From positions 1 to 64,000 of IMG/VR virus record IMGVR_UViG_3300042898_002521: 64,000 nt of DNA; one strand, 5' to 3'. The first letter of the stretch is position 1. Each line of letters begins with the position of its first letter. The notes under the pieces are model-generated. The model was not told the DNA's origin, ran no database searches, and saw nothing but the letters and a program-made list of their open reading frames with translations. This DNA comes from a virus. The translations under genes were made by a program, and so were the position numbers. Shown one piece after another: positions 6,860 to 40,184 of the stretch.

Positions 6860-7036
6860 GTGAGTAGTTGCCCACGTTGTATTACAGGCATAATGCCTGA
6901 CGCACCCGCCTTGTCACGCACAGATAACAAGACTCGTATCTGTTCAGCGTGTGGGTTATTAGAGGGAATTGAGCAGTTGCTTGATTGCCTGACACCACAG
7001 TCCCAATGGGGCATTACCGTTAATCAGGGGGTGTAG
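6860..7036 (+). CDS. small zinc-finger protein, 58 aa
   Basis: manual ORF, GTG start after GAGAGG; CPRC...ALSRTDNKTRICSACG. Confidence 0.7.
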   Translation: MSSCPRCITGIMPDAPALSRTDNKTRICSACGLLEGIEQLLDCLTPQSQWGITVNQGV

Positions 7037-7038
7037 GT

Positions 7039-7251
7039 ATGGATACATCAAACCTAACCACCGAAGCCGAACACGAGCGCGACTCTGGCTTTGAGACGTT
7101 TACAGTCCGTGCCAAACTTACTATCTGGCACACAGATACAGTCCAAGCCAAAAGTATCGAGGAGGCTTGGAAGCAAGTAGATGAGTGGGTAGCCGAGGAC
7201 TTTACCGAGGACTCGGACTGCTCTAGAAGTTGGGAGATAACCGTATGTTAA
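7039..7251 (+). CDS. hypothetical protein
   Basis: ORF track; VQAKSIEEA motif. Confidence 0.7.
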   Translation: MDTSNLTTEAEHERDSGFETFTVRAKLTIWHTDTVQAKSIEEAWKQVDEWVAEDFTEDSDCSRSWEITVC

Positions 7252-7460
7252 TGAACGCAGTAGTATGCCAAAATCAGTATCGGCTTACCAAGCAAAGTTT
7301 CCAAGAGTTAATTGAGGATCAACGGGAACACGAATACGTCGTAACTGACGAAGTCTGGGAAAGGGTTGCGGGCGAAATACTTGGTCGTATGGACAATTTC
7401 GTAGAGAACCTACTAACAGAACTAGTACACGACGTAATAGACGGAGATTACGACGAATAA
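7245..7460 (+). CDS. acidic hypothetical protein
   Basis: start re-assigned to ATG 7245 (or 7251). Confidence 0.65.
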   Translation: MLMNAVVCQNQYRLTKQSFQELIEDQREHEYVVTDEVWERVAGEILGRMDNFVENLLTELVHDVIDGDYDE

Positions 7461-7465
7461 CAATC

Positions 7466-7589
7466 TTGGTTAGGGGTAACAGAGTAATCTGCAATAAAGA
7501 ACACCCAGTCCTGTCATCGAGCAGGTACGGCTAGTACCGAGCAGACTCACAGTCACGGAAGTGGCACGGCTCTCTCTACCCCTAACCAA
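7466..7589 (+). ncRNA. candidate structured RNA, solo member of the AC/CUC stem family
   Basis: 13-bp closing stem TTGGTTAGGGGTA/TACCCCTAACCAA, AC/CTC internal loop, inner helices incl. GTCAC-GGAA-GTGGC. Confidence 0.65.
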
Positions 7590-7610
7590 CCTATTAAGGA
7601 GGAAAACGCT

Positions 7611-7787
7611 GTGGACATCAGCAAACTGTTCGAAATAGTACCAAAACTGGCAGATGAACTTGTAGAACTGCATAATGCGACAGGCATTGAGTTAGAACTG
7701 TGGGATACCGCGTATGCCCTAGTCAAGGAGTTCTACCACACAGAGGAAGTGGTACAGATCATCATCAGAGACAAGATAGTTAAGTAA
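7611..7787 (+). CDS. hypothetical protein, 58 aa
   Basis: manual ORF, AAGGAGG RBS + GTG. Confidence 0.7.
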   Translation: MDISKLFEIVPKLADELVELHNATGIELELWDTAYALVKEFYHTEEVVQIIIRDKIVK

Positions 7788-7794
7788 GAAACCA

Positions 7795-7834
7795 CCCCGA
7801 GGTTGCCGAACTTGGTAGCCTCGGGGCTTTTTTT
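7795..7834 (+). terminator. intrinsic terminator
   Basis: CCCCGAGG...CCTCGGGG + T-run. Confidence 0.8.
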
Positions 7835-8534: not shown

Positions 8535-9971
8535 ATGACAATCGCACTCTACGTTGAGTCCCTGTCCGAGACCATTGGTGACAATGGCGAGGCAGGTCTT
8601 GACCAAACTATTATCGTGCCAAACTACACCGTTGGCGCAGTCCAGTTATTCCACCGCACCAGTACGGGTAAGCGTGGTCGTTCCGAGGCTTGGACACTAA
8701 CGCCTCTATCTGATCTACCTAATACCCGTGTCATTAAGAACCCTGTTGCTATCCGTCTCACCGACAATGACCACTTTGCTATTCAAGGTGGCAAGGTAAC
8801 TACTTTGGGATACAAGACCACCACCGCCTCCGATCAACTTACCAAGCTTGGTGGCGATTACACTCTTAACCACTTTGATCTAGTATCAGACTTGGTATCA
8901 CGTTTCGAGAACGCCGATAATAGCCTTGCTATCTACTTGACCGACTCTCGTTACAAGGACACCTCAATCGAGTTTCCTCCTCTAGTGCCTAACCGTGCCT
9001 TTGGTAATAGTCCTGTTAGCACTTCGATCAACCCGACAATTTCCAACGTGGCAGTCCCTAACCAGCCTGTTACACCTCGCCACACCACCACACCAAGCTT
9101 GGTAATGGAATTGGCTAGTGTGCCTGACATTAAATGGGCAAAGCAATACATCAACCGCAAGGTCGTAGGTGACGTTAGTGATTTTGATATCTTTGACGTT
9201 GCTATGCGTAATGACGAGAACGTGCTTATTACTGGTCACGCTGGTTCTGGTAAGACTTCCTCGGTTATGGCTTACGCCTCGGCTCGCGGATACCGTTACT
9301 ACAACTTCTCTTGCTCGGCTGGCACGGATACCAAGAAACTATTTGGTGGATACAACCCAAGCCCAGACGGTCACTTCCATTGGCAAGACGGGGCAATAAC
9401 AGACTTGGTACGCAACGGAGGAGTCCTGCTTATCGGTGAGATTACCTTTATGCCTGAACGTACCGCCTCGGAATTGTATTCTCTATTAGATTACCGCCGT
9501 GAAATCCAACTAACGGATAAAGACGGGGAGGTTGTCAAGGCTCACCCTGATCTGCTCATTATTGCTGACGGTAATCTTGGCTATCGTGGTACGCGCGAAC
9601 TATCCCAAGCTTTCAACGATAGGTTCACACACCACCTCGACTTCCCGTATGACCCAGACATTGAGGGTAAGCTAATCAAGAGTAAGGCAATCTTGGAAAT
9701 GGCTAATTCATTACGAGACCGTTTCGAGGAGGAGGAAATCCAGACCCCGATCTCGACTCGCTCACTTGTCGCTCTAATGGGTAACATTAACAGTCTTGGT
9801 TTGGACTACGGTATCTACGCCTACCTCAACTTATTCCCAATGCGCGAGCAAGCTAGTGTCAAGTTAGTTATTGACACCTACCGCTACAACATTGAGGAGG
9901 AACTAGGTTTGGTTCACTCTGCACCTGCCGAGCCTGTTATGGAGGTGCTTAATAATGGTAATGCCAACTAA
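8535..9971 (+). CDS. MoxR/CbbQ-NirQ-NorQ-type AAA+ ATPase with N-terminal extension
   Basis: Walker A GHAGSGKT, WQDG motif, Walker B LLIGE (variant), AFNDRF arginine finger, ISTR. Confidence 0.85.
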   Translation: MTIALYVESLSETIGDNGEAGLDQTIIVPNYTVGAVQLFHRTSTGKRGRSEAWTLTPLSDLPNTRVIKNPVAIRLTDNDHFAIQGGKVTTLGYKTTTASDQLTKLGGDYTLNHFDLVSDLVSRFENADNSLAIYLTDSRYKDTSIEFPPLVPNRAFGNSPVSTSINPTISNVAVPNQPVTPRHTTTPSLVMELASVPDIKWAKQYINRKVVGDVSDFDIFDVAMRNDENVLITGHAGSGKTSSVMAYASARGYRYYNFSCSAGTDTKKLFGGYNPSPDGHFHWQDGAITDLVRNGGVLLIGEITFMPERTASELYSLLDYRREIQLTDKDGEVVKAHPDLLIIADGNLGYRGTRELSQAFNDRFTHHLDFPYDPDIEGKLIKSKAILEMANSLRDRFEEEEIQTPISTRSLVALMGNINSLGLDYGIYAYLNLFPMREQASVKLVIDTYRYNIEEELGLVHSAPAEPVMEVLNNGNAN

Positions 9972-11820
9972 GAAACCTGCTAAGTCTGCCGATACTGGCA
10001 ACCTGTACCAAGACTGGTATGACTACAACAGCACCAACTCTAGCGAGGGTCTATCCCAGATCGAGCGTGAGGAACTCAAGGATTACCTTGTGGCTAAACA
10101 GGCTAAGAAGCTTGCTAGGTTTCAGGCTATCGCTGGTGTGTACCAGACTGCGGATAGTGTGCTTACCAAAGCTAGTATTACCGTTACTGCTGGTGACTTT
10201 AGTAACCTAGAGTCAATGGGTGAAGCACCTGCGTTCAATGACGGCAAGACTATCTATCTCAACACAAACGTCTTAGCCGAGATTGACGATAACAGTCTCA
10301 TTAGCCTTAACGGTATCAACTACCACGAAGTTGCTCATATCCTGTGGTCACCGCGAGGCAACTCCGAGTTTGGGCGCAAGGTTACTAAAGGTGGATACCA
10401 AACCTCTTTCAATATCCTTGAGGACTTGCGTATCGAAACTCTTATGACCGCGCGTTTCCCAAGCACTACCCTGTCACTTACCCAGTCTGTTTTGACCTAC
10501 ATTATGGATAACCCAGACCCAAGTGACTCGTTTCCTCTAATCCGAGGTCGGCGTTACTTGCCTATCGAGGTGCGCCAACTATCTGCTGATCTCTATGTAG
10601 GTCGGCACGGCTCAACTCACGCTAACAATGTCGCTCGTATCGTAGATGAATACCGACTACTTACTTACCCAAGTGATTATGAACGTGGTTACGATCTCAT
10701 TGTTGAGTTTCATAATCTGCTCAAGCTTGCTGACCCAAAGAATAAGACCGAGGGACAATGTGGCTCACGCCCAATGCTCAAGTCTGGCAGACCTGAAAGT
10801 AACGATAAGCAAAGCAATATTGCTAATCGCGCTAAGGGTATGGACAAGAAAGCCGAGGATATCCCACCCAACGACAAGTCAGGTGCAGGTGCAGGTGACG
10901 AGGGTGAGTCCCAAGAATATGACCCACTTCAAGAACGTACCGAAATGGATACCGAGTTTGCTAACGTAGTGCGCGAGGCTATCAAAACCATTATGAAGTC
11001 CAAGCAAGTCAAGACCGAGGCTCGACAACTACGTTCTGCTATCCGTGAGTCTGACCGTGCAGGTCGTACAGACCTCAAGGCAACCTCCGATCTACTCCCA
11101 GTAGATAACGTGTACCGCGTGGCAAGCAAAGCTTTCGCACAGGAACTTAGCAAACTGCGTATTGACAGCGACCCACATTGGGATATTGAGAAACCTGTTG
11201 GTCGGCTCAATATCAACCGTGTTATGAATATGGATATTAACGATATCAACACGGTCTTTGACGAGTGGCGTGAGGGGCGTGACGAGTTTAATATCGAAGC
11301 CGTTATTATGTGCGACACATCAGGCTCTATGGGCAACGTAATCAAGGAGGTCTCTCAATCTATGTGGGCGATCAAACGTGCGCTGGAGGAAATTGACGGC
11401 AAGGTTACGGTCATTGGCTTTAGTGACAAGACCAAGCTTGTTTATGGAAGCAACGAACGTGCCACTAGCCAATACCGATTTTGGTATGACGGTGGAGGTA
11501 CTGACCCACTTGACGCTTTACTTGACGCGGAAGCAATACTTGAGTCCTCTCGGCGCAAGACTAAGTTGTTATTCGTAATCACAGACGGGGAGTGGTCACG
11601 GTCTGACGATTGTGACTCTACTATTAAGCGTATTAACAATATTGACGGCACTATTAGTCAGATTGTATTCATTAGTAGTAGTGAATACATTATGGAACAG
11701 ACCGTGACGGACAGGGAAGCCACAATGAAGCGTTACCGTCATCACGCTCACGCCATTGAGTTAGTCTCTAAGCCTAATGAACTTGTTAGTGTTGCCCGTA
11801 ACATCTTACGGAGTCTCTAA
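9955..11820 (+). CDS. vWA-domain protein with N-terminal HExxH metallopeptidase-like domain
   Basis: HEVAH, FNILED; MIDAS DTSGSM, GGGT, ITDG. Confidence 0.85.
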   Translation: MVMPTKKPAKSADTGNLYQDWYDYNSTNSSEGLSQIEREELKDYLVAKQAKKLARFQAIAGVYQTADSVLTKASITVTAGDFSNLESMGEAPAFNDGKTIYLNTNVLAEIDDNSLISLNGINYHEVAHILWSPRGNSEFGRKVTKGGYQTSFNILEDLRIETLMTARFPSTTLSLTQSVLTYIMDNPDPSDSFPLIRGRRYLPIEVRQLSADLYVGRHGSTHANNVARIVDEYRLLTYPSDYERGYDLIVEFHNLLKLADPKNKTEGQCGSRPMLKSGRPESNDKQSNIANRAKGMDKKAEDIPPNDKSGAGAGDEGESQEYDPLQERTEMDTEFANVVREAIKTIMKSKQVKTEARQLRSAIRESDRAGRTDLKATSDLLPVDNVYRVASKAFAQELSKLRIDSDPHWDIEKPVGRLNINRVMNMDINDINTVFDEWREGRDEFNIEAVIMCDTSGSMGNVIKEVSQSMWAIKRALEEIDGKVTVIGFSDKTKLVYGSNERATSQYRFWYDGGGTDPLDALLDAEAILESSRRKTKLLFVITDGEWSRSDDCDSTIKRINNIDGTISQIVFISSSEYIMEQTVTDREATMKRYRHHAHAIELVSKPNELVSVARNILRSL

Positions 11821-12560
11821 TGACTTGTGGCATAGGCGTTAAACCGAGTCGTGAAATCTCGGCAAGGACTTCCATAATAAGCACTTACTTCCTTTCAGCT
11901 TTAGAAGTACCTGCGCTTATGCCACTTACTAAACTTAGTACGCCCAACTCCCATTTACGAACGGAACGCCTGTCTGAACGCGCTATGCGTAAGAGTGACT
12001 GTGGTTCACTATTAGAACTTGGGACTCTGGGCGTACTAACAAGCTTAGTAGGCGCAACGTACAACCTGCGTTTGCATATTGCAACAATGACCGTGCCTCT
12101 GCGCCTACTAACTAACTTGGTATCAACAACGGTATCTATCCGAACCACAGAGAACACGCTACGACAGGTTGTCAGGGTTGGTAGTGCTAGATCGCTCTCT
12201 GTTGATACCAAACCCTTTAACCACGCACGTTCAGGAGTATCTTGCCTGTGTCTGGTAAGTAAAGGTCGTGGTAACTACGTTCCGCTTTGCTTATCTATGA
12301 GGTGTTTCCCTCAAATTGGAAACCGTGTTAGACGAAGCGAGCATAATAGGAGTCTCAACTTACGACCTTTACCTCGCGTGGTTAATCCCATTACTACTGG
12401 TGAGAGTGACGATACAACTACTGGTCTGTTCCAAGATGTCCTAAAGCTTACCCAACTTAGGTTGTGGTCTGCTTGTGACCGAGAGAACCACCGAACGGTT
12501 TATCCTCCGCTCTCACCAGTAATAATGCTTATCCCAACACAAACTTTTGCAGGTGCATAA
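11820..12560 (+). CDS. open frame of atypical composition overlying an RNA structure array
   Basis: 246 codons, TAATG overlaps at both ends; rich in T/L/S/R/V, no recognisable domain. Confidence 0.45.
   Translation: MTCGIGVKPSREISARTSIISTYFLSALEVPALMPLTKLSTPNSHLRTERLSERAMRKSDCGSLLELGTLGVLTSLVGATYNLRLHIATMTVPLRLLTNLVSTTVSIRTTENTLRQVVRVGSARSLSVDTKPFNHARSGVSCLCLVSKGRGNYVPLCLSMRCFPQIGNRVRRSEHNRSLNLRPLPRVVNPITTGESDDTTTGLFQDVLKLTQLRLWSACDRENHRTVYPPLSPVIMLIPTQTFAGA
11827..12526 (+). ncRNA. array of six stem-closed structured RNA domains
   Basis: 11827-11925, 11935-12039, 12045-12111, 12117-12211, 12217-12385, 12390-12526; 10-19 bp closing stems, 4-9 nt spacers; AC/CTC junction in five. Confidence 0.75.
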
Positions 12561-12769
12561 TGGCTCTAATACATTCAAGCGGATTAGTTATTACAGAACG
12601 GTCAGAACATCTACCAGAATATGACGGTGACTCTAAGTATGTCGTATGGAACTTATCCGAGGCAGAGCCGAAGGCAAGCTTCACCGCTAGTTATCTACCA
12701 ACTTTGATTAGATATCTTGATATTAACTACACTATTGCTAATAAATACAAACCCGAGAGAGGTATCTGA
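12560..12769 (+). CDS. hypothetical protein
   Basis: ORF track; coupled. Confidence 0.65.
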   Translation: MALIHSSGLVITERSEHLPEYDGDSKYVVWNLSEAEPKASFTASYLPTLIRYLDINYTIANKYKPERGI

Positions 12770-12981
12770 TGACCGAACCAGAACAACCAAAACCACCCCG
12801 ACCCGACTACGAAGTTGCGATCTTAGGTACGCAAGACGGGAATAACATCACATACGAGATGAAAGTCTTTGCTGATGACCCTGCTCACGCGAGCGAGCAA
12901 GGGTTCGAGTGGGCGCAACACCATACAGACGATTGGGCAACCGCAACATACCGTATCAACAAGATCAAGTATTACAACTAA
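12769..12981 (+). CDS. hypothetical protein
   Basis: ORF track; GAGAGG RBS. Confidence 0.7.
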   Translation: MTEPEQPKPPRPDYEVAILGTQDGNNITYEMKVFADDPAHASEQGFEWAQHHTDDWATATYRINKIKYYN

Positions 12982-13020
12982 TAAGTTTATTAGTATTAAC
13001 TACTACAAGAAAGAATAGAA

Positions 13021-13179
13021 ATGGAATATCAAATAACACAAGTAATTACTTACTGGGTACACGCCGAGACAGCTCAGGAAGCTCTCGACAAGTGGAACGC
13101 TAACCCCCGAACAGGCGTGACACAATGGCAAGACGGGGATATTGAACTATCTGATGAACACGTTGAACTAAATGGATAA
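13021..13179 (+). CDS. hypothetical protein, 52 aa
   Basis: manual ORF MEYQITQVITYWVHAETAQEAL. Confidence 0.55.
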   Translation: MEYQITQVITYWVHAETAQEALDKWNANPRTGVTQWQDGDIELSDEHVELNG

Positions 13180-13342
13180 GGAAACTAACAAGGAAATGAA
13201 GCCAATACTTCACCCAATAACTATTAAAGACACCCTTTACTACCTAACTTACCGCGAACTATCTGCTCTCTATGCTCAACTTCAATGTGCCGTAGAGGAA
13301 GCTGATGTGCTTGAGTACGTCACAAGAAAGGAACTAAGCTAG
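13172..13342 (+). CDS. hypothetical protein, 56 aa
   Basis: manual ORF filling the operon gap. Confidence 0.5.
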   Translation: MDKETNKEMKPILHPITIKDTLYYLTYRELSALYAQLQCAVEEADVLEYVTRKELS

Positions 13343-13344
13343 TT

Positions 13345-13584
13345 ATGCTGTACCGAGTTGCGCTAGGAATAGTGCTTAAAGACTTACGGATTAAACAGGG
13401 TTGGACTTTGCGAGAGTTATCTACCAAAGCTCTTATGTCTCTAGGCTACCTATCCGAGATAGAAAGAGGAGTCAAAGAGGTGTCCAGCGACCTTATGTTT
13501 GGACTATGTGAAGCGTTAGACTCTAACGTGCCTGACGTATTAGATCAAGTATCAACCCTAATGAGAGAGAGAGTAACAGTATGA
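13345..13584 (+). CDS. XRE HTH regulator, ClgR-like
   Basis: TLRELS..ALMSLGYLSEIERGVKEVSS..LCEAL closely matches actinobacterial ClgR. Confidence 0.8.
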   Translation: MLYRVALGIVLKDLRIKQGWTLRELSTKALMSLGYLSEIERGVKEVSSDLMFGLCEALDSNVPDVLDQVSTLMRERVTV

Positions 13585-13850
13585 GTAACAACTTAAGAAT
13601 TAGAGGCTCGGTCACAATCTCAACGCCTCAACACAAACTAATTGTGCAAGATATCTTAGACTTCTTATCTAGTTTAGAAAAGCTTGGCGTACCTATCACA
13701 GCAGAAATCCCTGATGGTTTCCTGCACTTCGAGTGGTTCAGCAAAAACGTAGACGTTATCCAATGTGGCGAACACCTTGTAGATGAAGCTGACAAGTTTG
13801 ATTTTGTGATTAACGCCCACGAATGTGAGAAAGAGAGTAATACCGATTAG
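13581..13850 (+). CDS. hypothetical protein
   Basis: ORF track; ATGA overlap. Confidence 0.7.
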   Translation: MSNNLRIRGSVTISTPQHKLIVQDILDFLSSLEKLGVPITAEIPDGFLHFEWFSKNVDVIQCGEHLVDEADKFDFVINAHECEKESNTD

Positions 13851-14005
13851 TAAGAGAAACTTATTTGGTTGGTGTGGTGGCGCAGGTGCTACCCATACTG
13901 ATTGCCGAGTATCATTTACATCAAGCCTGACGGAGAAAACCTACACTTGCGAGTGTGAGTGTCATAAATAATTATGGTAATGTGTACCAAAGAGAGAGAG
14001 AGAGA

Positions 14006-14326
14006 ATGGCAACTAGCCCCGAAATGAAACAGTTTGTAATAGATGTAGCAGACATTATTACTGAATGTAGTAACCTGCTTATCTCAAAGCAAAACGATTA
14101 TGGCCCTCTAAACATAGCGAACGCCCCTGGCGGAGCATTAAATGGTTTAAGAGTCCGTATCTTTGATAAAGTATCTCGCATTAACAATTTAATAGATGAA
14201 AACAAAGACCCAAAGCACGAGTCGCTGAGGGACAGCTTCCTAGACTTAGCCAACTACGGCATTATTGCTTTAATGGTTATTGACGGAGTATGGCCTAAAC
14301 TAGAAAACGGAGAGAACAATGGCTAA
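14006..14326 (+). CDS. DUF1599 / nucleotide modification-associated domain 1 protein
   Basis: KQNDYG...VRIFDKVSRINNL...ESLRDSFLDLANY; start re-assigned to 14006. Confidence 0.75.
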   Translation: MATSPEMKQFVIDVADIITECSNLLISKQNDYGPLNIANAPGGALNGLRVRIFDKVSRINNLIDENKDPKHESLRDSFLDLANYGIIALMVIDGVWPKLENGENNG

Positions 14327-14591
14327 AAAAGATAAGAAGAAAAAGAGTGATAACATCACCATTGAGAAAGTAAGCCTTGAGTTTATTCTTAAGCTTAATA
14401 ACGACAACCCTTTAGTTGAGTTTTTTAACACGTTACCTGATGAAGCAAAGCAGGAAATACTAAAGGGAACTATTTACAGCTCTTTAATAAACTCAAAGGC
14501 TATGCACCTATTAAACGCTGACAACAGTTGGGCAGAACTTAGTCTTGTCCCACTTGATACCTGCACCTGTCCACCAGAGGAGGAGAAATAA
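14319..14591 (+). CDS. hypothetical protein
   Basis: ORF track; GGAGAG RBS. Confidence 0.7.
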   Translation: MAKKDKKKKSDNITIEKVSLEFILKLNNDNPLVEFFNTLPDEAKQEILKGTIYSSLINSKAMHLLNADNSWAELSLVPLDTCTCPPEEEK

Positions 14592-14797
14592 TGAGAACGG
14601 CACTGTGGATAATTGCGTTTGCCCAGATGTATAACATTGTAGAGGCTTGGGTCTGGGCAATACATTGGAGACTCAAAGGAAAGAAAAAGTTTGAGGAGCG
14701 AATGAAAGACCGAGATCGTTCAACGGATTTAGAAAGTTTATTGGCTCTTTACAGCAACGACATTGACAAGCTTGAGAAGAGAAAAAATGGAAAGTAA
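14591..14797 (+). CDS. small membrane protein
   Basis: N-terminal hydrophobic segment; GAGGAG RBS. Confidence 0.65.
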   Translation: MRTALWIIAFAQMYNIVEAWVWAIHWRLKGKKKFEERMKDRDRSTDLESLLALYSNDIDKLEKRKNGK

Positions 14798-15143
14798 TAC
14801 TTTGTTCTGTATCTTTTGTAGTGCTGACTTGGGAGAGGAAGCCACGCATTGTGCGTCTTGCTCTGAATACAAAGGTGTTATGACCTACGAGGACATAGTA
14901 AAACACTATCCTGAATTGGCTAAGGAACTTGTTGAGTCTAATGATCTTGAGGAATACTTTGAGTGGTTAAACACAGGGTTTACTAACAAGTGGATTACCC
15001 CACCGTTTTGTATGACTCACGACGGAGACCCATACCTTACCGAGCAAGAGAGTAATGATTGGGAGGAGGGCGGAGACCCTTGCGCTCACGTTGTTAAGTT
15101 AGCTTTAGAAACCGATTACTACAAGGAGAACCCAAATGGGTAA
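14787..15143 (+). CDS. zinc-ribbon hypothetical protein
   Basis: CIFC...CASC; C-x-THDG...EGGDPC. Confidence 0.7.
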   Translation: MESNTLFCIFCSADLGEEATHCASCSEYKGVMTYEDIVKHYPELAKELVESNDLEEYFEWLNTGFTNKWITPPFCMTHDGDPYLTEQESNDWEEGGDPCAHVVKLALETDYYKENPNG

Positions 15144-15273
15144 GCACCACGATAAAATATTAGAAGCATTAGAAGTCCGTAAGCGGAACGTGCCTAACCG
15201 TAGTGGGTACAACACACCTGGGTCTATGAATAAGAAAAAAACTGGGTATGCGGGAAAGGCTAAGAAACGATAA
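15136..15273 (+). CDS. small basic protein, 45 aa
   Basis: manual ORF MGKHHDKILEAL...; AAGGAG RBS; coupled to next gene. Confidence 0.6.
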   Translation: MGKHHDKILEALEVRKRNVPNRSGYNTPGSMNKKKTGYAGKAKKR

Positions 15274-15491
15274 TGGCTAACAAGCACGTTGAGACTCCTT
15301 GCTATTACACAGGAGAGATAGATTTAGATACTGCCGAGGTCTGGCATTATCCAGAGTCTAGTAAAGTAACTACTAAATGCCCTGCTTGCAGTAACATAGT
15401 AGCAATCAACCAAGTTAATAAGAGACTTCGTAAGCACAACGGAATTAGCATAGCTCCAAACGAGAGAGACTTAATTTATAGCTTCGAATAA
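15273..15491 (+). CDS. hypothetical protein (CPAC)
   Basis: ORF track; last gene of plus-strand block. Confidence 0.65.
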   Translation: MANKHVETPCYYTGEIDLDTAEVWHYPESSKVTTKCPACSNIVAINQVNKRLRKHNGISIAPNERDLIYSFE

Positions 15492-15618: not shown

Positions 15619-15646
15619 AAGCCCCCTAGTTTTGACTAGGGGGCTT
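15619..15646. terminator. bidirectional terminator at convergence of the two gene blocks
   Basis: AAGCCCCCTAGT-TTT-GACTAGGGGGCTT flanked by A/T-rich runs. Confidence 0.75.
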
Positions 15647-15660
15647 ATTCTATTTAATTA

Positions 15661-17679
15661 TTACTTTGGTATTTCGCAGAAGTCCGTACTGCAGTATTTC
15701 TCACCGATAGCGTCGGCTGCCATACCTGCATAGACATCTGTGAAGTCAATGGGTAGCAGTTTCATTTTATAAGCTTCATACTGTTCGGCAGTTATCTGTG
15801 TATACGGCATTTGCGGGTAAGTCTTGTTCCCCATTGGTAAGAAGGAAACAGTTTTGAGTTGCCCGTCAAAGAGGTGTAGGACTGTACCAACATCTTTAGT
15901 TTCCGTGTCCTTATTAAAGGATACAGTAACCGAGACCGAGTTGTCTGACCAATGGCGTTGAGCTACCGAAGCGAGAGACATTTTTTCATAGATTGAAACA
16001 TCTTTTTCACTACGAGAAGCGTCTGATTCCACAGGAAAGAAAACTACGCTGGTAGTCTTTGGAGACTCACTAGCAGGTTCAACCGTGTAACCAGAGAACT
16101 CAAAGAGAGGTAACATTGGGTCATCATTAGCAAATCGGATAGCTCGCAAGAAATGCTTACCACCTGGAGTCCAATGCACACCTGGGCTTTCTCCAGCTAG
16201 AATAGACACAGTTCCGCTTGGCTTAACGGTAGTAGTCTTGATTGACTCACGAATACCCAACCATTCCGAGTACATCTTGTCGTACTTCAGCACTGTGTCG
16301 TACCCAGAGTCCATCCAAGTACGCAAAGTTGGAAGCCCGTTCTTATCAGCAAAGTTAGCAATACCTGACATTGAAGTACCAATACGGCGATTGCGTTGCA
16401 TAATAGCGTTGGTTTCTTCCCAATGGGTAGGTAGAAGTGTAACCGTCTTGGCATATAGGTATGCAAACTTCAGGCTTCTTAAGTAGTCTGCCATATCGTC
16501 GTGACGGTTAAGGTAAGTCTCGACTAGAGTACAGCACTCAAACGATTCTAGGCTCTGCTCTGCACAAGGGTTGTAACCAGCCGCTCGCCAATCTTTGTTG
16601 TTAGGTGGGTCAATCAAACGACCGTACTTGCGGGTCACATCCATCCAAATAACACCAGGCTCACCATTCAAAGCAATACCATCAATGATATTGGATAGGT
16701 CGTCACCAACCGAGATGCCAACAGAGTTATTAGACATCCAACCCCAACCTGGAGCTTTCTTGTCATAGCTATTACGCTCTGGAAAACGCTCACTATTTTT
16801 TAGATTAAGGAAGTCATCATCATCCAAGCGACCCATCAGTAGCTCAGCTGAACGGCGCACGTTACCTGACACTACGCATACTCCAATAAGGTTACCCAAA
16901 TCGGCAATGTCCACTCTAGTTAATAGTGTGCCTTCTCTATCTTTAAAGATTCGGGTAATGTGGTCGTGGAGCATCTTCAGAGGTTCAGGGCCCGCTGCCG
17001 TTCCACCAAACGTTCTAATAGGTTCTCCCGCTTTACGGATTTCACTATAATCAAAACTAATGCAGTTTTGGTCGTGGCGCAGGTATGAGTTGATGAGCGC
17101 TGTGGTAGATTCAACCCACCCCTCACGGGTATCGGGGATTACATACTCGGTACAGGTTTGTGTTGGCGCGTAAATGGTGAACTCTTTGTCTGCACCTTTG
17201 TCATCAAAACCCACACCTACACCTAGCATTGAGGCTTCCATTAGGAACGCAAATGGCTTGGCGGGGTTAAACTTGGTCATTGACTCGGTAGATACAAATG
17301 AGCAGTTTTGGAGGGCTGCGCTATTCTTTTGCACAGTAACGATAGGTGTACCCATTACCCATAGCCCACGGCCTGGCGGAGTCCACTTGAGTTCGAACAG
17401 GCGTTCGAAAGCCTCTTTAGCCGAGGCCTGTGCCTTGTTCTCATTCCACGGCAGACGGTTGGTCTTGCAGTGGTCTTTTTGGATTGAGTACATACCCTCA
17501 ATAACGCGACGGCATACTTCTACCCAAGTCTCTTTAGTGCCATCTTCTTTCTTTCTAGAATAGGTTCGTAGAAACGTGATTTCCCCGACCGCGTTTCCAC
17601 CTGCGTCTTGGTAACCCCAGGGAACTTTTTTACCTTCATACGACGAGATGAACTCGTCAGTCAATTTAAATGACAACAT
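15661..17679 (-). CDS. nrdJ: class II (AdoCbl-dependent) ribonucleotide reductase, monomeric RTPR type
   Basis: RTYSR, PPGRGLW, GNVRRSA, NPCAEQ, TTVKPSGT, C-terminal CxxxxC. Confidence 0.92.
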   Translation of the reverse strand: MLSFKLTDEFISSYEGKKVPWGYQDAGGNAVGEITFLRTYSRKKEDGTKETWVEVCRRVIEGMYSIQKDHCKTNRLPWNENKAQASAKEAFERLFELKWTPPGRGLWVMGTPIVTVQKNSAALQNCSFVSTESMTKFNPAKPFAFLMEASMLGVGVGFDDKGADKEFTIYAPTQTCTEYVIPDTREGWVESTTALINSYLRHDQNCISFDYSEIRKAGEPIRTFGGTAAGPEPLKMLHDHITRIFKDREGTLLTRVDIADLGNLIGVCVVSGNVRRSAELLMGRLDDDDFLNLKNSERFPERNSYDKKAPGWGWMSNNSVGISVGDDLSNIIDGIALNGEPGVIWMDVTRKYGRLIDPPNNKDWRAAGYNPCAEQSLESFECCTLVETYLNRHDDMADYLRSLKFAYLYAKTVTLLPTHWEETNAIMQRNRRIGTSMSGIANFADKNGLPTLRTWMDSGYDTVLKYDKMYSEWLGIRESIKTTTVKPSGTVSILAGESPGVHWTPGGKHFLRAIRFANDDPMLPLFEFSGYTVEPASESPKTTSVVFFPVESDASRSEKDVSIYEKMSLASVAQRHWSDNSVSVTVSFNKDTETKDVGTVLHLFDGQLKTVSFLPMGNKTYPQMPYTQITAEQYEAYKMKLLPIDFTDVYAGMAADAIGEKYCSTDFCEIPK

Positions 17680-39964: not shown

Positions 39965-40029
39965 TGCCAGTTCTCTCCTAAGGGCAATACATAAAGTTTA
40001 CCCGAAGAAAGAATAATAATCTTGGCTTG

Positions 40030-40101
40030 CTCCCCGCCGTGGACTTGAACCACGAACATTTCGATTAACAGTCGAACGCTCTGCCATTGAGCTAGCAGGG
40101 A
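40030..40101 (-). tRNA. tRNA-Asn (GTT)
   Basis: TCCCTGC acceptor, TAGCTCAATGGCAGAGC D arm, CT-GTT-AA loop, GGTTCAAGTCC T arm. Confidence 0.92.
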
Positions 40102-40105
40102 TTAG

Positions 40106-40184
40106 TGGAGCAGTCGAGAGTCGAACTCGATTCCTAACATTTCCGACATGCGGAGTTAATGCCAGTCGATACCAAATCTGCCCC
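40106..40184 (-). ncRNA. tmRNA-like RNA reduced to the tRNA-like domain (no tag ORF)
   Basis: GGGGCAG/CUGCUCC-A acceptor with G3:U; stemless D loop ..GGUAUCGAC; helix 2a; GAA linker; T arm UCGAG-UUCGACU-CUCGA. Confidence 0.75.

Follow-up and report, generated by a model that had tools for sequence, protein, structure and literature searches.

A stop-free reading frame threaded through a conserved RNA array in a lake phage operon, probably selected for ribosome passage rather than for a protein

An uncultured lake phage carries, in the middle of an operon, a 246-codon open reading frame (P0001; 11820-12560, plus strand) that consists of sense codons only and overlies an array of six RNA modules. 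The frame is non-random, the RNA structure beneath it has been kept by compensatory change, and related lineages swap frames over the same bases and yet stay open. We hold with moderate confidence that this 741-nt frame is a pass-through, or 'relay', frame laid over a functional RNA array. Because the frame is held open and its peptide can vary freely, the selected property is probably the passage of ribosomes rather than a protein, and the evidence says that the conserved object is the RNA array and the 'protein' a by-product of moving ribosomes.

Position and coupling of the frame, and its product

The window, that is, the whole stretch of 64,000 nucleotides that was analysed, contains a chain of genes (8535-15491) nearly all of which overlap or abut, with no terminator inside. 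The frame, its junctions and its surroundings are as follows.

7466..7589, plus strand: solo module of the same type as those of the array, with a 13-bp stem and AC...CUC; intergenic
7795..7826, plus strand: intrinsic-terminator-like hairpin, end of the preceding transcription unit
8535..9971, plus strand: MoxR-type AAA+ ATPase (AAA_5), first gene of the operon
9955..11820, plus strand: vWA protein ('CobT-like') with a metallopeptidase-like N-terminal domain, upstream of the frame
11810..11822, plus strand: 5' junction, Shine-Dalgarno GGAG (11810-11813) and TAATG (11818-11822; vWA stop and frame start)
11820..12560, plus strand: threaded ORF P0001, stop-free, overlying the RNA array; open in 35 protein clusters
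12550..12562, plus strand: 3' junction, Shine-Dalgarno AGGTG of the next gene and TAATG (12558-12562)
12560..12769, plus strand: 69-aa gene whose start is coupled to the frame's end; lost from the relative L006
15619..15646, no strand assigned: two-way terminator-like hairpin ending the 8535-15491 chain

A MoxR ATPase and a vWA protein have been proposed to act as a chaperone/co-chaperone pair in phages. Since the upstream protein has a vWA domain, a Ro60/Y-RNA reading of the locus was also considered; it was rejected, as the protein is without a TROVE domain and is paired with a MoxR ATPase.

The ATG at 11820 shares bases with the TAA of the vWA gene and lies 6 nt downstream of GGAG, and the TAA of the frame (12558-12560) shares bases with the ATG of the next gene. 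The 5' junction (GGAG and TAATG) is unchanged in the relatives L001, L002 and L006, and in L010 it reads GGAGTCTGTAATG. TAATG stands at both ends (double coupling) in this phage, L001 and L002, at both outer ends in L006, where the two ORFs into which the frame is divided also overlap internally by 14 nt, and at the 5' end only in L010. With a TAATG overlap and a Shine-Dalgarno sequence at each end, the frame of this phage would be translationally coupled on both sides. The AGGTG of the next gene in the window is accessible, and this gene may therefore be independent of coupling.

Over 11820-12560 the ORF frame is without stops, whereas the other two plus-strand frames contain 16 and 22, and none of 20,000 dinucleotide-preserving shuffles reached a stop-free run of 246 codons (shuffle mean 71, maximum 200). 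A sequence-only reading of this DNA had described a coupled frame of 246 codons between TAATG at 11818-11822 and TAATG at 12558-12562, and had considered a stop-free stretch so long, with both ends coupled exactly, unlikely by chance; the observation is confirmed, and the coordinates are exact.

The product does not resemble a protein, and its composition is near that of random codons (L 14.2, T 11.0, S 10.2, R 9.8 and V 8.1 %; L, R and S together 34 %). Acidic residues (D+E) make up 6.1 %, against 11.4 % in the other ORFs of the phage, and the codon score of 0.064 lies 2.6 SD below that of the phage's ORFs (0.324 +/- 0.099). No match to P0001 was found in Pfam or PHROG, in agreement with the sequence-only reading, which had noted the lack of a recognisable domain, the skew to T/L/S/R/V and the few acidic residues. 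A profile search of 1.84 billion representatives returned only its own narrow, nucleotide-conserved family; P0036, the sole additional profile match, is a repeat protein of chance-level similarity and was discarded. AlphaFold2 gave a pLDDT of 36 and a pTM of 0.12 from a 26-sequence alignment, and in the ESM Atlas the model had a pTM of 0.12 and only chance-level neighbours. Thus the homolog that the same reading had named as evidence against itself did not emerge, by structure or by sequence, from AlphaFold2, the profile search or the ESM Atlas. The usual marks of an ORFan gene (strong purifying selection, the same frame in relatives, and gene-like codons, fold or relatives) are all absent.

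The RNA array and its six modules

Modules take up about 700 of the 741 nt, and the array folds into six conserved RNA domains.

11827..11925, plus strand: module A, a 12-13 bp closing stem around two hairpins
11935..12039, plus strand: module B, a 12-bp closing stem, AC/CUC handle and long irregular hairpin
12045..12111, plus strand: module C, a 12-bp closing stem with AC/CUC handle; not in L010
12117..12211, plus strand: module D, a 12-bp closing stem with AC/CUC handle
12217..12385, plus strand: module E, a 10-bp closing stem with AC/CUC handle, multi-branched
12389..12527, plus strand: module F, a long hairpin with AC/CUC handle across 12395-12521

The minimum free energy of the array corresponds to z = -6.1, against 0.02 for an equal-length stretch of vWA coding sequence. 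RNAalifold, applied to four genomes, gave 225 pairs, 20 of which have changes on both sides (compensatory); double-sided changes were seen in 37 pairs when sequences were back-inferred from the 35 proteins. Short, low-depth contigs from sequencing runs contributed one extra compensatory pair and a net 3-nt indel; in module D, 12124 C>T is paired with 12204 G>A (sequencing run X11), and a 3-nt indel is present in L001 and L002. Between this phage and L006 the array has diverged by 15 %, compared with a dS of 0.41 in the neighbouring gene, which amounts to about one third of the synonymous rate.

The modules share a 'handle', in which a stem of at least 9 bp is followed by AC...CUC and the other arm. 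The 87.5-kb genome has six such handles, all on the plus strand, and the interiors of the six handle-bearing units are unrelated. The closing stems measure 10-14 bp, often with TA on their flanks. In module A the pyrimidine-rich loop ACUUACUUCCUUUCA is invariant, also in L010, and its stem covaries. This loop was considered as a ribosome-binding-site-targeting element within the window and rejected, since its complement with at most three mismatches was matched by itself only. Covariance models of Rfam 15 had no match in 11500-12900 or 7400-7660 beyond chance-level E values of 2.4 or more, and ARAGORN found no tRNA there. The plus strand is preferred over the minus strand because of its covarying pairs (20 against 12), the 156 G-U against 89 A-C cells, the plus-only handle and the orientation of the genes; the consensus energies are similar (-230.3 against -232.8 kcal/mol) with about 18 majority G-U pairs on either strand, and the call from G-U against A-C is suggestive only.

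The solo module has stops in all three plus-strand frames in this genome, is open in L001 and is embedded in an ORF in L010. As it persists untranslated here, the modules need no ribosomes as such.

It is possible, if rather unlikely, that the modules are selfish or mobile palindromes of the MITE or RPE type which settled in a translated operon site, in which case the structure would reflect inverted-repeat biology and not a phage RNA function, and only open-frame versions would have been tolerated because a stop would be polar. Rickettsia palindromic elements (RPEs) and ORF-compatible MITEs are units of 100-170 nt with long stem-loops and inverted repeats of about 12 bp (Ogata et al., 2000; PMC2229807); they lie in translated frames and are read through as peptide segments of no evident function, and Correia variants carrying stops are intergenic only (PMC2229807). 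The phage modules are likewise hairpin units with closing repeats of about 12 bp and presumably in-frame read-through, a frame being open across every module of the array and across the solo copy in L001 and L010. Modules of this type stand in an array and also singly, their number and order vary by lineage, and the one copy with stops is, as with Correia variants, intergenic (PMC2229807). However, RPEs and MITEs are many dispersed, near-identical selfish copies within functional proteins, whereas the phage has six different units. With only the handle in common and unrelated interiors, these do not form a family of near-identical copies; moreover, their interior helices are kept by compensatory change in orthologs at the reduced rate given above, and some loops are invariant even in L010. 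Module content varies between lineages; no transposase, target duplication or empty site was identified. Nor is there a surrounding host protein, the modules making up nearly the whole ORF with stop-to-start coupling on both sides.

Frame and peptide among relatives

The relatives comprise 35 protein clusters and five genomes, P0002-P0035 being known from protein sequence alone. Protein length classes of 30-134, 135-431 and more than 431 aa were searched, and together they gave the 35 clusters. Scans for the DNA pattern returned two already-known relatives only from viral contigs, no match from genome contigs and, in a single metagenome scan, one locus, L006. Searches of cultured phages by blastn and tblastn found no close relative; the matches were to CobT-like proteins of Gordonia, Brevibacterium and Microbacterium phages at 25-30 % identity, and in Gordonia phage DalanDe ordinary small genes (fold z = -2.4) follow CobT.

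All 35 clusters either begin at the coupled start and reach the array's end or form two overlapping ORFs, with no other truncated form. In P0010, P0022 and P0025 the start is at codon 20, so that the 5' coupling may be broken in these three. The substitution events that can be seen number at least 408, and none is a nonsense change; when only the four close genomes are considered, the probability of no new stop is 0.31, 0.20 or 0.057, which is not significant, and the argument for openness draws mainly on called proteins, an ascertained sample, and on one distant genome.

Two lineages depart from the single frame. In the split clade (L006) ORF1, of 158 aa, ends within module E at a stop 11 nt past the ATG of ORF2, which encodes 93 aa and has GAGG upstream; ORF1 is represented in 12 clusters and ORF2 in 8. 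With the 69-aa gene deleted in L006, the frame is joined in phase to the last 13 codons of that gene, and its end still lies on the start of the next gene. L010 is a distant relative (vWA 65 % identical) whose array has another module set and order (z = -6.25). From the same TAATG start it has 148 open codons, a 20-nt gap and 53 more codons, followed after 17 nt by the next gene with its own AGGAG, and one of its modules has stops in all frames. A restart codon lies at or near each frame break. Given the restarts of the split clade and the 20-nt gap of L010, neither an unbroken single frame nor exact coupling at the 3' end is obligatory. The expectation of the sequence-only reading that stops would be avoided therefore holds for the relatives found, but with internal stops in the split clade and in L010.

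While the frame stays open, the peptide is replaced. A frameshift-aware alignment shows at least six segments that are read in another frame and then restored, two of them in module F in several lineages, and the same stem B bases encode KLSTPN or SLVRPT, depending on the lineage. These compensated frameshifts fall at non-paired positions. Part of module F is deleted in frame, as is all of module B in P0027. Indels either keep to multiples of 3, as had been predicted, or are offset within a few codons. In L010, module E is read in a different frame, which has no stops there and seven in the window.

That the frame is untranslated, open by chance and inherited with a conserved RNA, with only its open versions called as genes, is very improbable. 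Such a reading would fit the non-significant result from the four close genomes and the fact that a protein database holds called ORFs only. Against it stand the probability of the original open frame, below 1 in 20,000 by shuffling, the lack of truncated forms in any length class from 30 aa up, the non-paired positions of the compensated frameshifts, the restart codons at the breaks and module E of L010, read in a frame with seven stops in the window and none in L010, which calls for selection on that frame, such as translation alone provides. We infer from this frame-specific conservation alone that the frame is translated.

Selection on the peptide itself is at most weak, as judged from substitutions. 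The dN/dS of the frame is 0.51-0.61, against 0.06-0.24 in neighbouring genes and 0.75-1.03 when the same substitutions are read in two control frames. Variable columns are distributed 41/42/56 over the three codon positions, a marginal third-position excess (p about 0.05), and those in unpaired loops 10/11/10, without codon periodicity. Some constraint on the peptide is possible, because dN/dS is below that of the control frames and the third position is in marginal excess. A value near 1 had been anticipated; the value found falls short of that and is above those of the neighbours. These data also bear on whether P0001 could be a genuine, fast-evolving, disordered basic protein, such as an RNA-binding partner of its own transcript, whose overlap with RNA structure is incidental. 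We regard this as improbable. The frame is conserved, its dN/dS is lower than in the control frames and the product is rich in Arg and poor in acidic residues, as such a protein might be. Nevertheless, the segments described above and the whole of module E in L010 have been replaced by what the same bases encode in another frame, codon usage is random-like, as is composition, the pLDDT is 36, the search of 1.84 billion representatives brought up no relative beyond the narrow clade conserved at the nucleotide level, and the unpaired positions lack periodicity. The earlier proposal of an open frame maintained for something other than its protein thus comes through most of the checks named with it, finds support in the frame swaps and the lack of a homolog, and is qualified by a dN/dS below 1 and by relatives with internal stops.

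Proposed ribosome passage and comparison with known systems

The relay reading could operate as follows. On finishing the vWA gene, ribosomes would begin again at the AUG that overlaps its stop and that is, on its downstream side, 5 nt away from the 12-bp stem closing module A. They would then cross some 700 nt of modules and end translation on the start codon of the gene that follows. Their passage would be kept uninterrupted, or nearly so, in whichever frame each lineage uses, with the peptide as a by-product. The benefit could be continuity of translation for the small overlapping genes downstream, protection of the transcript from polarity or nucleases, or both. Since highly structured RNA offers Rho a poor place to load, the argument from Rho is weak.

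It is also conceivable, though we consider it fairly unlikely, that translation acts as a gate, with ribosome traffic controlling the modules and the switch being selected rather than the delivery of ribosomes downstream. Translated transcripts would then be unfolded and serve as mRNA, and those untranslated or cleared of ribosomes would fold and then be processed into stable small RNAs or be bound by a partner. The position of the AUG, 5 nt from the module A stem, is consistent with this, since entry should then depend on ribosomes derived from vWA. The whole array is open, beyond just its ends, the sequence of the handles is conserved in the manner of sites for recognition or processing, and the accessible Shine-Dalgarno sequence of the next gene means that coupling alone may not explain the frame. 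The untranslated solo module of this genome, and the tolerance of L010 for a frame break within a module, argue the other way. Sequence data cannot separate the gate from the relay.

More broadly, we tentatively suggest that the phage modules represent a class of non-coding RNA (stem-AC...CUC-stem) lying inside 'content-free' frames that are selected for nothing but letting ribosomes through, the transcript serving both as array precursor and as ribosome relay. The phase of such frames might, again tentatively, drift, split and re-fuse, with stops purged from the phase in use. If true, non-coding RNA genes would here be embedded in translated operons in a manner not described so far. Gene callers label the stretch a hypothetical protein, and the 35 database clusters are so annotated. 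The locus also points to an uncatalogued RNA module family adjoining MoxR-vWA genes in freshwater phages. Confirmation of the relay reading would mean that a long reading frame can be maintained by selection purely for continuity of translation. Its signature, in which the frame is open, homologous bases are read in swapped frames, the composition is close to random and the stems covary, could distinguish pass-through frames from genuine ORFan proteins within viral dark matter, and the locus would offer a natural system for the interplay of ribosome traffic, polarity and the folding of embedded RNA.

Among known systems, large phages carry clusters of stable RNAs, such as tRNA arrays and the T4 tRNA region with its species 1 and 2 RNAs. 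These resemble the phage array in their head-to-tail units of 70-170 nt, set a few bases apart in a longer transcript, but they lie outside reading frames, whereas the phage modules are threaded by one and none is a tRNA or belongs to an Rfam family. Dual-function RNAs (SgrS/SgrT, RNAIII/hld and tmRNA) also combine conserved structure and a translated frame on one RNA; in these, however, a short functional peptide occupies a separate segment, whereas the phage frame runs through every domain and its peptide is not conserved.

Regulatory ORFs matter through their translation rather than their product, as in the leader peptides and uORFs of attenuators and in Rho-dependent polarity control (PMC12360218). 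In these, ribosome occupancy is what is selected, as proposed here, and passing ribosomes refold the RNA and protect the transcript, as may be the case for the phage frame. Those frames, however, have about 10-30 codons, lie in a 5' leader and sense a signal, whereas that of the phage has 246 codons, lies in mid-operon and covers conserved RNA domains. Finally, both junctions are textbook examples of the TAATG/ATGA overlaps, with an upstream Shine-Dalgarno sequence, that couple genes in phage and bacterial operons, and the 5' end, with its start beside a stable stem, has the layout of structure-dependent coupling. The usual coupled cistron encodes a protein, whereas that of the phage appears to encode passage only.

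The frame and its product

The window derives from an 87.5 kb IMG/VR virus record from lake water, and the frame examined here lies midway along an extended + strand operon with tight coupling, a position indicated by the close packing of the genes and by the fact that no terminator-like site interrupts the stretch from the hairpin at 7795-7826 to that at 15619-15646. The genes upstream form a MoxR and vWA pair, which in phages is predicted to act as chaperone and co-chaperone (PMC7824862), and about 12 small genes, nearly all overlapping or abutting, follow 3' of the frame. The two-way terminator-like hairpin at 15619-15646 parts the operon from a convergent gene (15661-17679, -) for a B12-dependent (class II) ribonucleotide reductase.

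The frame, its junctions and its upstream neighbours
8535-9971, +, MoxR-type AAA+ ATPase, upstream of the frame
9955-11820, +, vWA-domain protein whose N-terminus is metallopeptidase-like, directly upstream of the frame
11818-11822, +, 5' junction TAATG, where the ATG of the ORF shares bases with the vWA TAA; GGAG lies 6 bases upstream
11820-12560, +, threaded ORF of 246 sense codons
12558-12562, +, 3' junction TAATG, where the TAA of the ORF shares bases with the ATG of the next gene

The sequence-only reading had described a 246-codon frame coupled by TAATG at both ends and improbably free of stops, and both statements hold. The junction coordinates agree, the other two + frames contain 16 and 22 stops over 11820-12560, and in 20,000 dinucleotide-preserving shuffles the open run averaged 71 codons and peaked at 200, so that none reached 246; the double coupling is thus exact and the openness far beyond chance.

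The product does not look like a protein. As the same reading had noted, it lacks a recognisable domain and is poor in acidic residues: no family in Pfam or PHROG matched it, and D+E make up 6 % of residues vs 11 % in the phage's long ORFs. A 26-sequence profile run against 1.84 billion representatives recovered nothing beyond its own narrow family except a repeat protein, a spurious hit. The confident structural homolog that had been named as contrary evidence was not found; AlphaFold2 with the alignment gave a pLDDT of 36 and a pTM of 0.12, and the ESM Atlas model was equally poor, with neighbours at chance level. The codon-usage score was 0.064, whereas the 68 long ORFs of the phage scored 0.324 +/- 0.099, and L+R+S account for 34 % of residues vs 20 % in those ORFs, as expected for near-random codons.

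It could nevertheless be argued that the frame encodes a real disordered protein. A dN/dS near 1 had been anticipated, and this was borne out only in part: the values in the frame (0.51-0.61) exceed those of neighbouring genes (0.06-0.24), but they lie below 1 and below those obtained when the identical substitutions are read in the other two frames (0.75-1.03). At codon positions 1, 2 and 3, variable columns numbered 41, 42 and 56 (p about 0.05), and unpaired variable columns in three close genomes 10, 11 and 10. Taken together, these comparisons leave room for weak constraint on the peptide at most.

RNA modules beneath the frame

The predicted fold of the stretch consists of six stem-closed modules in succession.

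Modules of the RNA array
11827-11925, +, RNA module A
11935-12039, +, RNA module B
12045-12111, +, RNA module C
12117-12211, +, RNA module D
12217-12385, +, RNA module E
12389-12527, +, RNA module F

The fold z-score of the array is -6.1, vs 0.02 for vWA coding sequence of equal length. An RNAalifold consensus of four genomes (the window and its close relatives L001, L002 and L006) contains 225 pairs, 20 of which still pair after changes on both sides, and one metagenome contig carries the compensatory changes 12124 C>T and 12204 G>A. When sequences conservatively back-inferred from 35 related protein clusters were added, both-side-changed pairs rose to 37; cells were Watson-Crick in 4,732 cases and G-U in 476, vs 99 A-C and 150 other. 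Window and L006 differ by 15 % over the array, compared with a dS of 0.41 in vWA, which points to clear nucleotide-level constraint on paired and unpaired parts alike. Module A has a pyrimidine-rich loop, ACUUACUUCCUUUCA (window 11883-11898; 6998-7012 in the more distant phage L010), which is invariant in 5/5 genomes while its stem covaries; it resembles an anti-Shine-Dalgarno sequence, and no complement within 3 mismatches occurs elsewhere in the window.

A handle recurs in each of modules B-F, consisting of a closing stem of 10-14 bp and then AC (5') and CUC (3'). In a whole-genome scan it occurred six times, always on the + strand, namely in B-F and in one solo copy. Wobble pairs alone are only suggestive of the strand; + is favoured by the handle, by covarying pairs being more numerous on that strand, and by the direction of the genes. 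Neither the array nor the solo module matched an Rfam family or a tRNA. Elsewhere in the window (40029-40184, -), a tRNA-Asn (GTT) is followed at once by an 82-nt tmRNA-model match that covers model positions 1-374 with most of the model skipped; this match may represent either a reduced tmRNA-like element or a fragment resembling a tRNA.

The solo module
7466-7589, +, solo AC/CUC-handled module of the window, from the whole-genome handle scan
L001 1543-1667 and L010 2614-2744, its orthologues

Between genomes the solo handle is invariant and the interior about 60 % identical, with compensatory changes. The window copy is intergenic, with stops in all three + frames and then a strong AAGGAGG, and modules as such therefore appear not to require ribosomes. 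The L001 copy is open, and that of L010 lies within a 76-codon ORF ending in ATGA with the next gene, so that modules would seem repeatedly to sit in frames coupled to the following gene. In these very few cases, threading seems to accompany a weaker Shine-Dalgarno sequence on that gene and to lapse at a strong one.

Stops and phase among relatives

A search of 5.8 billion proteins in three length classes (30-134, 135-431 and >431 aa) identified 35 clusters related to the product across all classes. Fourteen are essentially full-length, including P0010 and P0014, the latter missing part of module F in frame; 12 represent an N-terminal part of 158 aa (or 138 aa) ending inside module E, eight a C-terminal part of 93-96 aa, and one (P0027) has module B deleted in frame. 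No other truncated products and no fused forms occurred among the 35 clusters in any length class. The expectation that relatives would be free of internal stops thus held outside two lineages, the split clade and L010.

In L006, ORF1 stops at 2977 and ORF2 begins with an ATG at 2964, a 14-nt overlap with GAGG upstream of the second start. Conservation of the N-terminal tail and of the MLT(L/P)D start throughout the split clade marks the split as a single event, after which the overlapping restart was retained. L006 lacks the 69-aa gene that follows the frame (L006 3200-3277 vs window 12528-12771); a deletion joined ORF2 in phase to the last 13 codons of that gene, and ORF2 still terminates in TAATG on the following gene. 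Clusters P0010, P0022 and P0025 start at codon 20 (MDTYFLS), and in L001-type sequences this ATG is part of another TAATG with its TAA in the +1 phase, so an early frameshift with restart may exist in these lineages.

A frameshift-aware alignment of every protein against the four DNAs revealed at least six segments that leave the frame of the nearest reference and later return to it. The clearest is in stem B: the bases are identical, yet one group reads them as KLSTPN and another as SLVRPT, owing to two 1-nt indels, a deletion and an insertion, which are separated by 30 nt and are not opposed in any helix. The window and L006 differ by nine indels in four groups with sums of 0, +7, -3 and 0; the predicted multiples of 3 are therefore seen except in the +7 group, which alone breaks the frame, and the restart lies at the same place. 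A net 3-nt deletion is common to L001, L002 and the sequencing-run contig X11.

L010, with 80 % identity to the window in MoxR and 65 % in vWA, has an array at 6961-7606 that is just as structured (z = -6.25). Its order is A', B', E', a small perfect hairpin (~7322-7348), D', F', with E preceding D and C absent; given this altered order, missing module and extra hairpin, the modules appear to behave as shuffled cassettes. A less likely alternative to the main reading gives them a selfish-element origin. The L010 frame begins in TAATG with the vWA stop and meets its first stop after 148 open codons. Another 53 codons, in a frame with an ATG of its own that is separated from that stop by a gap of 20 nt, extend as far as the end of the array, and 17 nt further on comes the next gene with its own AGGAG. 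For the homologous bases of module E, L010 uses a phase that has seven stops in the window and zero in L010. This change of phase argues against a conserved protein. Were the frame instead an untranslated accident, the apparent purging of stops from each lineage's used phase would be hard to explain.

Random placement of the observed substitutions in the four close genomes often yields no new stop (31 %, 20 % and 6 %), and these genomes alone therefore prove little. In the protein set, which consists of called genes only, at least 408 visible substitution events include zero nonsense changes, against an expected number of roughly 10-15. Together with the lack of other truncated products and with L010, this makes a strong comparative argument for stop avoidance.

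Probable ribosome passage and its precedents

The best-supported reading is that of a pass-through frame, in which passage is selected and the peptide hardly, and it rests on comparative sequence evidence only. That the frame is kept open for something other than its protein accords with the swapped frames, the missing nonsense changes and the poor structural model; the dN/dS below 1 weighs the other way. Ribosomes terminating on vWA would restart at the overlapping AUG, and since this AUG adjoins the stem of module A, entry is probably dependent on coupling. They would then cross the array and terminate on the start of the next gene.

Such passage could be of benefit in a few ways. First, it could provide unbroken translation for the downstream gene chain. 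Second, it could avoid the polarity that arises where a long stretch stays untranslated (PMC12360218). Third, it could protect the transcript from nucleases. Finally, ribosomes could gate the folding or processing of the RNAs. Of these candidates, avoidance of Rho polarity has the least in its favour, as Rho loads poorly on tightly folded RNA.

The threaded array was found neither in Rfam nor in the literature searched. Its nearest precedents are ORF-compatible MITEs, among them the in-frame palindromic elements of Rickettsia (PMC2229807), and short regulatory ORFs in which translation, not the product, matters. None of these matches the present case, in which the entire 246-codon frame consists of distinct RNA domains that covary, has coupling at its two ends in the window, and drifts in phase between lineages.
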